Shown here: positions 4,230 through 48,529 of the stretch, one piece after another
Position numbering within the stretch: position 1 is the stretch's first letter
Layout: each line of letters begins with the position of its first letter
NCBI RefSeq assembly: GCF_055900595.2
Contig: NZ_CM148325.1
Strand: one strand, 5' to 3'
DNA length: 64,000 nucleotides
Position numbers and translations under genes: made by a program
The notes under the pieces: generated by a model
Database searches by the model: none
What the model was told of the DNA's origin: nothing
What the model saw: only the letters and a program-made list of their open reading frames with translations

Positions 4230-4262
4230 AGCCTGCGCCACGTTTTACAATGAGGAAAGAAG

Positions 4263-4541
4263 ATGATCGCGGAGTTTGAATCACGCATTCTGGCATTAAT
4301 CGACGGTATGGTTGACCATGCCAGTGATGATGAGTTGTTTGCCAGTGGGTATTTGCGTGGCCACCTGACATTAGCCATCGCAGAACTGGAAAGTGGTGAT
4401 GACCACTCCGCCCAGGCGGTACATACGACCGTTAGCCAGAGTCTGGAAAAAGCCATTGGTGCCGGTGAATTGTCGCCGCGAGACCAGGCGCTGGTGACCG
4501 ATATGTGGGAAAATCTGTTTCAACAGGCGTCACAGCAGTAA
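4263..4541 (+). CDS. yfcL: Uncharacterised small protein YfcL
   Basis: 92-aa ORF in the conserved position after epmC, preceded by AGGAAAGAAG 5 nt upstream of the ATG. Confidence 0.8.
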
Positions 4542-4561
4542 GTTGTTGGCGTCTGGAGCGT

Positions 4562-4836
<275 letters not shown>

Positions 4837-4850
4837 GCTGCCAAAGCAGA

Positions 4851-17610: not shown

Positions 17611-17772
<162 letters not shown>

Positions 17773-34023: not shown

Positions 34024-35226
34024 TCAGGCGGTCAAGCGGCAGGCGTCTTGCGCGATAACCAGCTCTTCGTTGGTCGGAATCACAACAGCAGGGCGGGTGC
34101 CTTCTTTGTTGATGAAACCAGATTTGCCGAAACGTGCAGCCAGGTTGCGCTCATGATCAACTTCAAAGCCCAGCACGCCCAGTTTGCCCAGAGACAGTTC
34201 ACGAACCATCGCGGCATTTTCACCGATACCACCGGTGAATACAACAGCGTCCAGACGACCATCCATCAGCGCGGTGTAGGCACCGATGTATTTCGCCAGA
34301 CGGTGGCAGTAAACGTCCATTGCGCGCTTCGCGTCTTCTTTTGTCGCGTAGTTGTCTTCAACATAACGGCAGTCGCTGGTGACTTCGGTCAGACCCAGCA
34401 GGCCAGACTCTTTGGTCAGCATTTTGTTGATTGCGTCAACGCTCATGCCCAGAGTGTCGTGCAGGTGGAAGATGATCGCAGGATCGATATCGCCAGAGCG
34501 AGTACCCATTACCAGACCTTCCAGCGGGGTCAGACCCATAGAGGTGTCAACGCATTTACCGTTGCGGATAGCAGAAACGGAACCACCGTTACCCAGGTGG
34601 CAGGTGATGATGTTCAGCTCTTCTACCGGTTTGTTCAGCATTTTTGCCGCTTCCTGGGTTACATAGAAGTGGCTGGTGCCGTGCGCGCCGTAACGACGGA
34701 TGCCGTGCTCTTTGTACAGGTTGTACGGCAGGGCGTAGAGGTAAGACTCTTCCGGCATAGTCTGGTGGAACGCGGTGTCAAATACAGCAACGTTTTTGTC
34801 TTTCAGCTGAGGGAAAGATTTCAGTGCTTCTTCGATACCGATCAGGTGAGCCGGGTTGTGCAGCGGTGCAAAAGAAGCTGCATCTTTGATACCCTGAATA
34901 ACAGACTCATCGATCACTACGGAGCTGGTATACTTTTCGCCGCCGTGTACGATACGGTGACCGATAGCGGTCAGCTGCGCAGACAGTTCTGGTTTTTGTG
35001 CCAGAATAGTATTAACGATAAAGTTGAGCGCTTCGCTGTGAGCGGCGCCTGCACCTAAAGCCGCTTCCTGTTTATTGCCGTCCATTTTCCATTTGATACG
35101 TGCTTCGGGCAGGTGGAAACATTCGGCTAAACCAGAAAGGTACTCTTCACCATTTACTGCATCGATGATTGCAAATTTCAGTGAAGAACTACCGCAGTTC
35201 AGAACCAGTACTAACTTACTCGACAT
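34024..35226 (-). CDS. ackA: Acetate kinase
   Basis: 400-aa [25 protein letters not shown] (ASKHA fold). Confidence 0.96.
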
Positions 35227-35563
35227 GGAAGTACCTATAATTGATACGTGGCTAAAAAAACGTCAGGGAGCCATAGAGCGTAGCGCATGATGACACTGAC
35301 ATTTATGATTAACATCATGCACTGCAAATTTTTTTTGCATGATGGAAGAAATATCTTGAGTCTATGCCATTTTGCGTAATTTTCAGCCAATGGCATAATG
35401 TATATGAATTTGACGACTCAATGAATATGTACTACTTAGGCCTTCAGGCTGCTAAAGGATACCTGATAGTGGGTATGGAAGACAAAATGTTTTGAACGTT
35501 GTCCCGCTGAGTTGTGAATTTGCACAAATTTTTGAATCTTTATATGTGAAGTTGAGGTGAAGC

Positions 35564-39917: not shown

Positions 39918-41135
39918 TTACAGCTGATGATAACCAGAAAGGAAACGCGCGAACTTACTCAAAGACAGCTCGATATCATCAACACGTGGTAGTGTGACAA
40001 TGCGGAAGTGATCCGGCCACGGCCAGTTGAATGCTGTCCCTTGAACCAGCAGGACTTTTTCCTGCAACAGGAAATCCAGCACCATTTTCTGGTCGTCGTG
40101 AATGTTAAAGCGTTTAGCGTCGATTTTCGGGAACATATACAGCGCACCGCGCGGTTTCACGCAGGAAACGCCCGGAATGTCGTTGATCAATTCCCACGCG
40201 CGGTTACGCTGCTCATAAAGACGCCCGCCGGGAGTAATAAATTCACTGATGCTCTGATAACCGCCTAGTGCGGTCTGAATGGCGTGTTGCGCAGGAACGT
40301 TAGCACACAGGCGCATCGAAGCCAGCATTTCCAGACCTTCGATGTAACCTTTAGCGTGTTTTTTCGGCCCGTTCAGCACCATCCACCCCTGACGGAAGCC
40401 TGCAACGCGGTACGTTTTCGACAATCCGTTAAAGGTAATGGTCAGCAGATCAGGTGCCAGCGGCGCAATTGAGTGATGCTCAGCGTCATCGTAGAGAATT
40501 TTGTCATAAATTTCATCGGCGAAGATAATGAGATTATGCTGACGTGCAATCTCCACTATCTCCATTAAAAGCTCTTTGGAATAAACTGCGCCGGTTGGGT
40601 TATTTGGGTTGATAATAACGATTCCACGCGTACGAGGCGTAATTTTAGCGCGAATATCATCAAGGTCCGGGAACCAGTCAGAGGATTCATCGCAAAGATA
40701 ATGCACCGCTTTACCGCTGGAGAGCGAAACCGCCGCAGTCCAAAGAGGGTAATCAGGCGCAGGAACTAACATTTCGTCCCCGCTGTTCAGCAATGCCTGC
40801 ATTGCCTGAACGATAAGCTCCGATACACCATTGCCGATGTAAATATCTTCCACGGTAACATCACGCATGCCACGAGCCTGGTAGTGCTGCATGATGGCTT
40901 TACGCGCGGAGTAAAGCCCTTTGGAATCGCAATACCCTTGAGCGGTAGGCAGGTTGCGAATCACGTCAACGAGGATTTCATCTGGCGCGTCAAAACCGAA
41001 CGGGGCAGGATTGCCGATGTTCAGTTTCAGTACCTTGTTACCTTCTTCTTCCAGGCGTTTTGCTTCTTTCAGCACCGGACCACGGATGTCGTAACAGACA
41101 TTCTCTAATTTGCTGGATTTTTCAATGGGGGACAT
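39918..41135 (-). CDS. alaA: Glutamate-pyruvate aminotransferase
   Basis: 405-aa ORF, class I aminotransferase; PLP-lysine context FNGLSKTYRVAGFR. Confidence 0.93.
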   Translation of the reverse strand: MSPIEKSSKLENVCYDIRGPVLKEAKRLEEEGNKVLKLNIGNPAPFGFDAPDEILVDVIRNLPTAQGYCDSKGLYSARKAIMQHYQARGMRDVTVEDIYIGNGVSELIVQAMQALLNSGDEMLVPAPDYPLWTAAVSLSSGKAVHYLCDESSDWFPDLDDIRAKITPRTRGIVIINPNNPTGAVYSKELLMEIVEIARQHNLIIFADEIYDKILYDDAEHHSIAPLAPDLLTITFNGLSKTYRVAGFRQGWMVLNGPKKHAKGYIEGLEMLASMRLCANVPAQHAIQTALGGYQSISEFITPGGRLYEQRNRAWELINDIPGVSCVKPRGALYMFPKIDAKRFNIHDDQKMVLDFLLQEKVLLVQGTAFNWPWPDHFRIVTLPRVDDIELSLSKFARFLSGYHQL

Positions 41136-42051
41136 GAATCTTGACCTTTTTTGCTGTTATCGCCACTCCCTGCCGTGGAAGTCAGCTTAGAACAATGTAC
41201 TCCCCCAGGACGGCGTTTTGAAGGTCTGCAGAATAAGATTTTGCCAGAGGGGAAGACTCGATTGTGCTGTTAATAACTTAATAATGGCAAAATAATGAGG
41301 TGTATATGCTTAGTAATTAATGTTATGTAGTGAATTGTTCTGATTCTTAATTGTGAGTGTGGTTTTTTTATCTGTAAGATAATTGTTTGAAAATGCCTCG
41401 TTTAAGAATTCACTAATGAATCGTGATGATGATATTTCCGCATTACGGAGAGTTTAACAGCGTGATGATTTCCGAGGTGTCGTAATGGGTGCAAGGTGTG
41501 AAACTATTGTTAAGCGGGATTAATGAATGAGGATGATGCTAATTAATTATTATTTAATATTCAAAAAGGTTTTGTTGTGCTTATTAATAATAGAAGATTA
41601 CTTTGCCTAACATAACATAACTTTGCATCAGATAATTCGCAATGACCCTTATAAATAAAAGGTTTTTGGGGTAAAATGCTCGCATAAATGACGGATCCCT
41701 GCTCTTGATGCCGCCTCACCATTGCTGTTTGTACGTGTTCGCGTATGACCAGCGATGCTGCACGAGAGTGGAACAAGGACTCACATTTACATTTATACAA
41801 ACACGCGCATGTCATAAATACAAAAGAGTGAGTAACTTAATAGATATGCGATTCCTGAAGATATATTCTGTGATCTACTTCAGGCATTATAACGGAACAA
41901 TGTGAGTCGCTTTTTTAGTGCAACTCATATGCATTTTTACTTTCGTCCGGGTTCCGGATGAAACTGCCAGGGAGGCACATTACAAATGGAATTGCTTGTT
42001 TGTGTGTGCACAGCATTAACCAGCTCAGTACGAGCCGCCAGTAAGTGATAA

Positions 42052-42993
<942 letters not shown>

Positions 42994-43036
42994 TCGACGG
43001 ACCATAGATAATTCCTGGGACAATAGTGTAAAAACG

Positions 43037-43076
43037 AGCCGCTGGGGGTGTTTTAAACCCCAGCGGCTTTTTTTTA
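43037..43076 (+). terminator. Intrinsic terminator downstream of lrhA
   Basis: AGCCGCTGGGGGT-loop-ACCCCAGCGGCT followed by TTTTTTTT. Confidence 0.85.
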
Positions 43077-43622
43077 GTAAAAAGCCTTCCTCGTATCGTG
43101 CAGAACGCACAAAACTGTTCATTTTTCAATCAACAGAGATTCACGTCCCGAACGCACAAATAATCGCCTGAAAAAAATCACCTGCTACAATGATGTTAAA
43201 AAATACGTAAATTTGTTGCTGCGTTTTTGTTATGGAATGACAAAAGCGTGTCACAGATCAAGAAAATACTCTCTTTTGGGGGGAGGAATCGACACAAATT
43301 CCTGTCAAAATAGACCCGTATTTTTTCCATTGCTTCACAACGGACACGATTCAACAACATCTAATTATCCTGGAGTCGTCAAGGATCTGGGGTGAAAGGG
43401 CATTAAATGCTAATGGTGTTGATATTATGTAAACTAATGTGAAGAAACTTTTGTTAAAGTTGACAAAAGGTTATAGAAAGGAGTAAAAGACCACATCAAT
43501 TAGCTGTATAAAAGAGTTTCTACAGTGATTGTAAGGTTTTTTTTATTCCTCCCCATGAATCGATGTGGCGTCCATCTGCCGTGAAGAGCAGTGAATCTGG
43601 CGCTACTTTTGATGAGTAAGCA

Positions 43623-44066
43623 ATGAGTATGTCAACATCCACTGAAGTCATCGCTCATCACTGGGCATTCGCTATCTTTCTTATCGTTGCCATTGGCCTG
43701 TGTTGCCTGATGCTGGTAGGCGGTTGGTTTTTAGGCGGTCGCGCACGCGCGAGGTCGAAAAACGTTCCGTTTGAATCCGGTATCGACTCGGTCGGCTCCG
43801 CCCGCTTACGCCTGTCCGCCAAGTTTTATCTGGTGGCCATGTTCTTCGTTATCTTCGACGTTGAAGCGCTGTATCTGTTCGCATGGTCAACCTCTATCCG
43901 CGAAAGCGGCTGGGTAGGCTTTGTGGAAGCTGCAATTTTTATTTTTGTGTTACTGGCAGGTCTGGTTTATCTGGTGCGTATTGGCGCGCTGGACTGGACG
44001 CCCGCGCGTTCACGCCGCGAGCGTATGAACCCGGAAACGAACAGTATCGCTAATCGTCAACGCTAA
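43623..44066 (+). CDS. nuoA: NADH-quinone oxidoreductase subunit A
   Basis: 147-aa membrane ORF opening the nuo operon. Confidence 0.95.
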
Positions 44067-44081
44067 CCGCGAGGCATTAAG

Positions 44082-44744
44082 ATGGATTATACGCTCACCC
44101 GCATAGATCCCAACGGTGAGAACGACCGTTACCCCCTGCAAAAGCAGGAGATCGTAACCGACCCTCTGGAGCAAGAAGTTAACAAAAACGTGTTTATGGG
44201 CAAGCTCAATGACATGGTTAACTGGGGTCGTAAAAACTCAATTTGGCCGTATAACTTCGGTCTTTCCTGCTGTTACGTTGAGATGGTGACTTCGTTTACC
44301 GCGGTGCATGACGTGGCACGTTTTGGCGCAGAAGTATTGCGTGCTTCGCCGCGTCAGGCTGACCTGATGGTGGTTGCAGGAACCTGCTTTACCAAAATGG
44401 CACCGGTTATTCAGCGTCTGTATGACCAGATGCTGGAGCCAAAATGGGTTATCTCAATGGGTGCCTGTGCCAACTCTGGCGGTATGTACGATATTTATTC
44501 CGTTGTGCAGGGCGTTGATAAATTCATCCCGGTTGATGTGTATATCCCGGGCTGCCCGCCACGTCCTGAAGCGTACATGCAGGCACTGATGCTGTTGCAG
44601 GAATCTATCGGTAAAGAACGTCGTCCGCTCTCCTGGGTGGTTGGCGATCAGGGCGTTTATCGCGCCAATATGCAATCAGAGCGCGAACGCAAGCGCGGTG
44701 AACGCATTGCCGTTACCAACCTGCGTACACCTGACGAGATTTAA
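44082..44744 (+). CDS. nuoB: NADH-quinone oxidoreductase subunit B
   Basis: 220-aa ORF with N2 cluster cysteines (CCYVEM, GTCF, CPPRP). Confidence 0.95.
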
Positions 44745-48477: not shown

Positions 48478-48529
48478 CCGAATTTCGATTAACGCTCAGT
48501 CTCTGACTGAGAAAACTGGAAGCATGCTA

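Follow-up and report, generated by a model that had tools for sequence, protein, structure and literature searches.

Results

The interval between lrhA and nuoA

We examined the DNA that separates lrhA from nuoA, with which the nuoA-N operon begins, in a window of 64,000 nucleotides (contig NZ_CM148325.1 of NCBI RefSeq assembly GCF_055900595.2), and in particular positions 43077 to 43622, which run from the end of the lrhA terminator to nuoA. All positions are those of the window, whose plus strand is the minus strand of Escherichia coli K-12; a window position above 43030 is converted to its K-12 coordinate by subtracting it from 2448695. The DNA is that of E. coli: the whole lrhA-nuoA stretch of 629 bp is found once in 5423 of the 5426 complete E. 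coli genomes, is ~98% identical to that of K-12, and holds no feature in the K-12 RefSeq annotation. A reading of the letters alone (the sequence-only reading) had described the interval as an unusually long, in places AT-rich, non-coding leader of about 550 bp upstream of nuoA, probably regulatory for the most part, with room for unannotated small transcripts. Length and composition bear out the first part of this description. The interval comprises exactly 546 non-coding bp, the lrhA-nuoA gap ranks third in length among the 58 gaps between open reading frames (ORFs) of at least 100 amino acids in the window (median of 56 bp), and the G+C content is 29-43% across most of 43077-43622 compared with 50-60% in the adjoining genes. 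Further long stretches of the window without an ORF of at least 100 amino acids lie at 34157-35563 (1407 bp), 4230-4850 (621 bp), and 60141-60728 (588 bp). The features that we recognize in and around the interval are collected in Table 1.

Table 1. Features of the lrhA-nuoA interval and its borders, in window positions
Feature	Position	Strand	Description
Main sigma-70 promoter	43460-43489	+	-35 TTGACA (43460-43465), invariant 18-bp spacer, -10 TAAAAG (43484-43489)
SL1, 5'-terminal hairpin of the leader	43497-43531	+	CAAUUA.GCUGUA ... UACAG UGAUUG; begins two nt after the main start
Open U8-AUU-CCUCCCC stretch	43537-43554	+	Between the two leader hairpins; predicted single-stranded
Terminator-like leader hairpin	43559-43613	+	Lower helix 43565-43572/43599-43606; upper helix 43576-43579/43588-43591; invariant, AAGA-containing loop; basal extension in E. 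coli 43559-43563/43609-43613; U-tract UUUUGAU 43607-43613
Possible upstream ORF of 9 codons	43555-43584	+	MNRCGVHLP-stop; shares positions with the terminator's 5' arm
nuoA ribosome-binding region and start codon, RyhB pairing region	43614-43634	+	AAGCAAUG, invariant across the family
nuoA coding sequence	43623-44066	+	
Conserved upstream modules	43193-43459		Nearly invariant in 80 species
Module ATGTTAAAAA	43193-43202		
Module TTGTTGCTG	43213-43221		
Module ATTAACAAAAGCGTGTCACAGATCAAGAAAATACTC	43237-43272		NarL-type TACYYMT heptamer at its end in most genera
Module GGGGGGAGGAATC	43277-43289		
Module AATTCCTGTCAAAATAG	43297-43313		
Module ACGGACACGATTCAACAAC	43340-43358		
Module AAAGGGCAT..ATGcTAATG	43394-43415		
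Module ATGTAAAcTAATGTGAAG	43426-43443		ArcA/CpxR direct-repeat look-alike
Near-palindrome AAACTTTTGTTAA-AG-TTGACAAAAGGTT	43445-43472		Centered on the -35 hexamer; conservation 0.99-1.00
Distal promoter	43183-43198	+	Extended -10 TGcTACAAT (43183-43191); start at 43198, seven nt downstream
Distal spacer	43077-43192		Fast-evolving; length conserved
lrhA Rho-independent terminator	43029-43076	+	12-bp G+C-rich stem 43036-43047/43058-43069, A/U-pair extension, then U8
lrhA	42055-42993		Stop codon ends at 42993

For comparison, we collected 80 species-level genomes of the Enterobacteriaceae with a NuoA-based scan, which covered, among other genera, Escherichia, Salmonella, Citrobacter, Enterobacter, Klebsiella, Raoultella, Kluyvera, Kosakonia, Buttiauxella, Cedecea, and Franconibacter. 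lrhA lies directly upstream of nuoA in all 80, and in 64 of them the spacer is within ~10 bp of the E. coli length; because both the order of the genes and the distance between them are kept in this way, we conclude that the length of the spacer is not accidental. Where large insertions could be located in the exceptional genomes, all fell between the lrhA stop codon and the lrhA terminator. They comprise a 371-bp tandem-repeat insertion directly after the lrhA stop codon in Intestinirhabdus alba and insertions of ~133 bp after that stop codon, resembling small mobile repeats, in Kosakonia oryziphila and Buttiauxella agrestis; all three precede the lrhA terminator, and the nuo control region is intact in each case. 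Conservation within the interval is blocky, and from 43193 onward the modules are 0.8-1.0 identical in the 80 species, which is above the value for the 3' end of the lrhA coding sequence. We found no conserved ORF in 43077-43622; ORFs of at least 30 amino acids in the spacer vary in position and length among the genera.

A conserved promoter starts a short nuo leader

The most conserved stretch of the interval is 43428-43494, which holds the promoter TTGACA-18-TAAAA(A/G) (conservation of 0.87-1.00). This promoter lies 6-9 nt upstream of the two main nuoA starts mapped by Kim et al. (2012), who print the flanking sequences: A43495, with 4218 reads and a 5' untranslated region (UTR) of 128 nt, and A43498, with 1744 reads and a UTR of 125 nt. 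The former start has independent support from SMRT-Cappable-seq, in which a nuo transcription start was placed at K-12 2405200 (window 43495) and an additional one at K-12 2405210 (window 43485). Further, a promoter of the form TTGACA-18-TAAAAA in the nuoA-lrhA spacer was recovered with the holoenzyme by systematic evolution of ligands by exponential enrichment (Shimada et al., 2014). The -10 hexamer does not have the consensus final T and is polymorphic at 43489: TAAAAG occurs in the strain studied here, in Escherichia albertii, and in ~4276 of 5426 complete E. coli genomes, and TAAAAA occurs in K-12 and in nearly all other genera. Some 1056 E. coli genomes gave no megablast match to the 47-nt query around the -10 element, as is expected if its central base differs. 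A consensus promoter and terminator scanner run over 42900-43750 called no promoter at all, and its sole terminator call was at chance level and inside nuoA; this scanner misses the main promoter and the leader hairpin because the former is without the final T of the -10 hexamer and the latter contains internal loops.

With respect to the leader of ~550 bp that the sequence-only reading had proposed, these starts show that the main transcript has a far shorter UTR, of 125-128 nt by the starts of Kim et al. (2012), the longer form of which SMRT-Cappable-seq also gives. A longer leader would occur as a minor isoform: the operon table of SMRT-Cappable-seq lists a start at K-12 2405497 (window 43198), seven nt downstream of an extended -10 element, which would give a UTR of 425 nt. 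In the alignment, this TGcTACAAT form of the element is specific to Escherichia, and many other genera carry TGCTAATGT at the same place. Kim et al. (2012) report no other start between the main nuoA starts and the lrhA promoter.

We also considered position 43360, which was used as the "+1" of nuo by Chareyre et al. (2019), and set it aside. It has no recognizable promoter, could be traced to none of the datasets consulted, and is absent from the starts of Kim et al. (2012); as a published but unverified start, it is at odds with our placing of the promoter. The nuo part of the PBAD-nuoA-lacZ fusion used in that study begins at TCTAATTATCC, which is position 43360. If the main start is at 43495, this fusion would include, downstream of PBAD, the native nuo promoter as well as the leader terminator described below.

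The leader RNA ends at a conserved hairpin just upstream of nuoA

Public Term-seq data (Adams et al., 2021) place an orphan 3' end at K-12 2405086 (window 43609), 14 nt before the nuoA AUG, with 282,730 reads. This end has a Rho score of 0.82, which does not mark it as a Rho site, and an intrinsic terminator score of 11.56 against a cut-off of 3.0. Two further lists of the same study place the end at K-12 2405082 (window 43613), 10 nt before the AUG, with 475,924 and 124,622 reads. The counts are among the highest of the neighboring minus-strand entries listed, and two condition lists in supplementary file 1 enter no further 3' end upstream of this site as far as that of lrhA. Adams et al. (2021) note no regulatory element at the nuoA end, and their main text does not contain the term "nuo." Together, the mapped 5' and 3' ends define a discrete leader RNA of ~115-119 nt, which is absent from Rfam and from the K-12 annotation; our literature text searches found no named nuoA leader RNA. 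In Rfam 15 we obtained no match within 43077-43622 at E values up to 1, and the sole match within 41000-44200 was at chance level, on the minus strand, over the lrhA terminator. Thus the locus does give rise to an unannotated small transcript, as the sequence-only reading had allowed, although of a kind that it had not anticipated: rather than a gene of its own, the short RNA is the nuo leader itself, ended at a conserved terminator-like hairpin. Instead of a single start followed by one continuous UTR and no small transcript, there are several starts and a short leader RNA.

The hairpin has a predicted energy of -19.9 kcal/mol in E. coli, and the same hairpin was recovered by RNAalifold from 57 leaders. 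Among the 57 species, the leader is 112-126 nt long and the free energy of the hairpin ranges from -10 to -17.5 kcal/mol (mean of -14.9 kcal/mol). The lower helix is 97.7% paired despite changes on both sides, with GC replaced by AU in 11 sequences, CG replaced by UA in 10, and GU/GC/AU alternation besides; the upper helix is 97.1% paired and almost invariant. In total, the helices contain three to four compensated pairs, and control helices obtained by sliding the arms were merely 26-46% paired. All 57 species have three to six U residues in the first eight nt of the tail (just three in three genomes). The element occurs as a single copy, and 4932 of 5422 E. coli genomes carry it with an identity of 99% or more.

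We infer that the ends at 43609 and 43613 result from termination at this hairpin and that the hairpin would act as an attenuator that sets or modulates transcription of nuo. Alternatively, the hairpin could be a stabilizing or translation-tuning structure 5' of the nuoA ribosome-binding site, and the 3' ends could be decay intermediates trimmed back after a cut near that site, made for example by RNase E after pairing of a small RNA (sRNA), with the 3'-to-5' exonuclease then halted by the hairpin. Trimming of a longer RNA by a 3' exonuclease would give an end exactly at the base of the stem, and the E. coli basal stem does reach exactly 43613, one of the two 3' ends; further, the pairing site of RyhB is immediately downstream of the hairpin, the U-tract is imperfect and in some genera weak, and Adams et al. 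(2021) assign most 3' ends in 5' UTRs and ORFs to processing (~20% are predicted to be intrinsic and 11% Rho-dependent). However, the intrinsic terminator score is far over the cut-off, a run of four to six U residues follows the stem in most genera, the 43609 end falls within the U-tract, where ends from intrinsic termination are usually found, and the ends occur in all three Term-seq lists, including that for iron-replete lysogeny broth, in which RyhB should be low. We therefore regard trimming as unlikely.

In addition to the coincidence of the stem base with 43613, several observations weigh against the attenuator. The U-tract (UUUUGAU) is not continuous, some genera have a weak one (CACUUUGG, UAAAUUGG), and a simple terminator scanner gives no call on the hairpin, the stem of which has internal loops. 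We found no convincing antiterminator in the leader. The sole alternative pairing that emerged, of 43493-43501 with 43558-43566, is 74.5% paired (slid controls, 22-52%) and shares only 2-3 bp with the core stem. Coverage in DirectRNA-seq is 609 in the 800 nt downstream and 259 upstream; because the downstream coverage exceeds the upstream coverage, read-through must be substantial. Last, the invariance of the upper stem and loop exceeds the needs of a plain terminator; because termination does not require it, the invariant upper stem and AAGA loop suggest an additional ligand of the hairpin.

The 5' hairpin and the open segment of the leader

The 5'-terminal hairpin of the leader, SL1, also covaries: seven of its 11 pairs have changes on both sides, and 73% of the aligned cells are paired, although the loop aligns poorly (mean fold z score of -1.2 in 64 sequences). 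Between SL1 and the terminator-like hairpin lies the motif UUCCUCCCC, which has a conservation of 0.90 and a mean predicted unpaired probability of 0.74 in the 57 leaders. Its CCUCC resembles an anti-Shine-Dalgarno sequence and occupies the exact place that a Shine-Dalgarno sequence would have for the AUG at 43555.

This arrangement led us to consider that the terminated leader is a trans-acting 5' UTR-derived sRNA or sponge, in which CCUCCCC would pair with G-rich Shine-Dalgarno regions or with another sRNA and which would couple nuo promoter activity to other genes; such a role would be compatible with attenuation. The leader has the layout of an enterobacterial sRNA (5' hairpin, U-rich single strand, conserved open motif, and terminator with a U tail), the open motif is as conserved and as unpaired as described above, the RNA is abundant in Term-seq, and other 5' UTR fragments act as sRNA sponges according to Adams et al. 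(2021). On the other hand, the literature search gave neither Hfq or ProQ binding nor target data nor a mention of such an RNA, the U tail of the terminator is short for Hfq binding, and the conservation of the motif is explained equally well by a role in cis. Overall, we consider a trans-acting RNA to be doubtful.

The AUG at 43555 raises a second alternative, ribosome-mediated attenuation, in which a ribosome on the upstream ORF covers the 5' arm of the terminator (43559-43572) and prevents termination, so that nuo transcription would reflect how much translation the cell can sustain or how well particular tRNAs are supplied. An AUG or GUG is present 4-10 nt ahead of the hairpin arm in most of 81 sequences, in at least 30 genomes the ORF extends to a UGA that overlaps the nuoA AUG, and the U-tract upstream could recruit ribosomal protein S1. 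Against this, the ORF has the complement of a Shine-Dalgarno sequence in place of the sequence itself, its start codon is lost in at least six genomes, indels of 1-2 nt shift its frame so that its length varies from eight to more than 25 codons, and it lacks a run of regulatory codons. Its coordinates are without an entry in the Ribo-RET supplement of Stringer (2021), and the RNA helices account for the conservation of the nucleotides. To judge from the alignment, the ORF is probably not a conserved peptide, and we rejected it as a leader peptide; attenuation by a ribosome on it is, in our estimate, very unlikely.

Conserved DNA modules upstream of the main promoter

That the interval would be mostly regulatory agrees with the alignment: ~420 bp lie upstream of the main start and contain blocks that are conserved beyond the 3' end of the lrhA coding sequence. 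The nuo intergenic region (~560-630 bp after lrhA) integrates ArcA, NarL, FNR, IHF, Fis, and CpxR (Bongaerts, 1995; Wackwitz, 1999; Guest, 2017, as cited in later literature). In a consensus-level scan for sites of these six regulators, we found TGTTAA-type repeats at 43194, 43408, 43428, 43438, and 43452, GTAAAnnnnnGTgAA at 43429-43443, a Fis-like match at 43398-43412, a NarL TACYYMT heptamer on the minus strand at 43479-43485, inside the promoter spacer, and a NarL-type heptamer at 43266-43272 that is perfect in most genera and imperfect in E. coli. The assignments of regulators to these sites are consensus matches, to be taken as leads, which tells against this part of our interpretation. 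The scanned motifs account neither for the near-palindrome over the -35 hexamer nor for an invariant pair of blocks that we read from the sequence, CGTGTC (43247) and GACACG (43343). The 9-mer TGACAAAAG, a half-site of the near-palindrome, is present again at 43238-43246, and the near-palindrome is a candidate operator for a dimeric regulator.

The distal start at 43198 raises the alternative that 43198-43622 is mostly one long structured leader RNA and that the invariant modules are RNA elements. In E. coli, the 428-nt RNA folds with a z score of -4.68, and in the upstream 300 bp the plus strand folds far better than the minus strand (z scores of -3.5 and -0.8). Further, the variable segment 43353-43398 contains, at the same place in many species (about 43365-43395), hairpins unrelated in sequence (mean z score of -1.1), and C/U variation facing the invariant G-run at 43266-43283 is tolerable as G-U pairs. 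However, when 22 species are compared, the two strands of the upstream 300 bp fold about equally (z scores of -2.3 for the plus and -2.1 for the minus strand), as DNA palindromes would, and low values on both strands fit RNA structure and DNA palindromes alike. The start at 43198 is absent from Kim et al. (2012), its TGcTACAAT element is not conserved beyond Escherichia, and the main promoter is located inside the proposed RNA. A long-range helix between GGGGAGGAAT (43280) and ATTCCTCCCC (43545), a perfect 10-mer in E. coli, was rejected as a conserved helix: in genera in which one arm differs, the other does not change to match it. Covariation thus gives a long leader RNA no support. Taken together, a long RNA as the basis of the modules appears highly improbable to us, and we read the modules as promoter DNA.

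The borders of the control region and the neighboring genes

Downstream of the hairpin, RyhB pairing covers the nuoA ribosome-binding site and AUG and was tested by compensatory mutations, with a mutagenic oligonucleotide that changes 43626-43628 (Chareyre et al., 2019). Our duplex prediction for RyhB and nuoA is not significant by itself, as 28 of 300 shuffled targets equal it. The first ~10 codons of nuoA (43623-43652) are nearly invariant in the 80 species, synonymous sites included, and GTATGTCAACATCCAC is 100% conserved. This invariance, seen in the alignment, suggests a constraint at the level of RNA or DNA, which could be RyhB pairing, structure, or a binding site. Further downstream, in a scan at the Rfam gathering thresholds, the nuoG RNA motif (RF01748) is found at 48480-48522, between nuoF and nuoG, with 50.3 bits. 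Elsewhere in the window, three copies of naRNA4 (RF02564, derived from repetitive extragenic palindromic elements) exceed the gathering threshold, at 4614-4786 and 17649-17719.

At its other end, the interval begins with a distal spacer that evolves fast and keeps its length. Its 116 bp cannot be aligned between genera, and in bins of 10 nt the 80 species are 0.24-0.57 identical to the window there. Within E. coli, only 18 of 4752 matching genomes have an identity of at least 99%, 1984 have 90-95%, and 674 genomes are unmatched; an intraspecific divergence of up to 10% is unusually high for core DNA. The spacer also contains an E. coli-specific direct repeat of 17 nt, CGTgCaGAACGCACAAA, at 43097-43113 and 43144-43160 (47-bp spacing).

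The lrhA terminator upstream of the spacer is strongly folded (-29.3 kcal/mol and a z score of -6.05; mean z score of -6.2 across the 80 species), and in the alignment the letters of its stem change among the genera with pairing retained. The Term-seq 3' end classed as "primary" for lrhA is at 43024 (K-12 2405672/3), 31 nt past the stop codon and 12 nt short of the hairpin at 43036-43069, and no 3' end is listed at the U-tract of the terminator in two condition lists. A 17-nt sequence, AATTCCTGGGACAATAG, at 43010-43026 recurs at 43297-43313. On the far side of lrhA, the alaA-lrhA spacer (41136-42054) is 919 bp long; the lrhA start of Kim et al. (2012) is equivalent to ~41684 (11 reads), and the 5' UTR of lrhA is apparently ~371 nt. 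Orphan Term-seq 3' ends lie upstream of lrhA at ~41763 and, 50 nt ahead of the lrhA AUG, at ~42005. An ORF of 20 codons at 41986-42048 is preceded at good spacing by GGGAGG, a Shine-Dalgarno sequence that is complementary to CCUCCC in the nuoA leader.

Discussion

We consider it likely that the interval between lrhA and nuoA is the control region of nuoA-N and that it consists of upstream promoter DNA, two promoters, and a structured leader with a Rho-independent attenuator. The anatomy of the region, its conservation, the covariation of both leader hairpins, and the 5' and 3' ends of the leader RNA are matters of observation. From these we propose the following sequence of events. The conserved modules in the upstream ~420 bp would serve as platforms for ArcA, NarL, FNR, IHF, Fis, and CpxR, and a dimeric factor would probably bind the palindrome over the -35 hexamer. 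The conserved sigma-70 promoter starts the main transcript at 43495 and 43498, and the weaker, Escherichia-type extended -10 element would start a minor one at 43198. A share of the polymerases would halt at the leader hairpin, with release of a stable RNA of ~115-119 nt, and the remainder would continue into nuoA-N, where RyhB would still be able to block the ribosome-binding site 3' of the hairpin. An occupant of the open segment 5' of the hairpin (a ribosome on the AUG that has no Shine-Dalgarno sequence, Hfq, or an sRNA) may shift the balance to read-through.

The individual parts of this region are all of known kinds. Those most like the nuoA site are the other 3' ends at intrinsic terminators in E. 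coli 5' UTRs, such as that in the ispU/uppS leader, that were found by Term-seq in the same dataset (Adams et al., 2021): they share the hairpin and U-tract in a 5' UTR, a Rho-independent 3' end in vivo, and a promoter common to the short RNA and the mRNA. The nuoA site differs in that it was tabulated only and is unusually near the start codon (10-14 nt), and its hairpin is now seen to be kept, with covariation, throughout a bacterial family. The nuoG RNA motif is likewise a conserved cis-acting hairpin within the nuo transcript of enterobacteria; it lies at the nuoF-nuoG junction rather than in the operon leader, is unrelated in sequence, and forms an Rfam family, whereas the nuoA leader matches none. 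Attenuators of the trpL, thrL, and pyrL type have the same short ORF over the 5' arm of a Rho-independent terminator before the first structural gene, but the nuoA leader is without the Shine-Dalgarno sequence, conserved peptide, regulatory codons, clear antiterminator, and translation signal. Hfq-type sRNAs with C-rich seeds resemble it in the 5' hairpin, the open and conserved C-rich motif, and the terminator; in contrast, the nuoA leader shares its promoter with the nuo mRNA, and no independent one is known. The classical nuo promoter region (Bongaerts, 1995; Wackwitz, 1999; Guest, 2017, as cited in later literature) is the same DNA.

A more far-reaching proposal would make the leader a family-wide riboregulator of complex I, in which a ligand at the hairpin loop or at CCUCCCC (a ribosome, Hfq or ProQ, an sRNA, or a metabolite) renders the attenuator conditional, the RNA of ~119 nt also acts in trans through its anti-Shine-Dalgarno-like motif, and Escherichia adds the long isoform. 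In that isoform, which starts at 43198, GGGGAGGAAU (43280-43289) could mask the CCUCCCC motif. We put this forward as a speculation that is unlikely to hold as a whole.

No enzyme of the E. coli respiratory chain is larger or costs more iron than complex I, which is encoded by an operon of 15 kb. Control of this operon has been ascribed to ArcA, NarL, FNR, IHF, Fis, and CpxR at the step of initiation and to RyhB at the ribosome-binding site. The proposed nuoA leader attenuator and its RNA are family-wide and present in public data, yet undescribed. Fusions that begin at the assumed "+1" of 43360 contain both the native promoter and the proposed attenuator, which may affect their interpretation. 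At least one as yet unassigned regulator is suggested by the invariant modules, most of all by the palindrome that spans the -35 hexamer. Overall, a family-conserved terminator 10 nt before nuoA would add a checkpoint after initiation to the control of nuo, together with an abundant, uncharacterized leader RNA.

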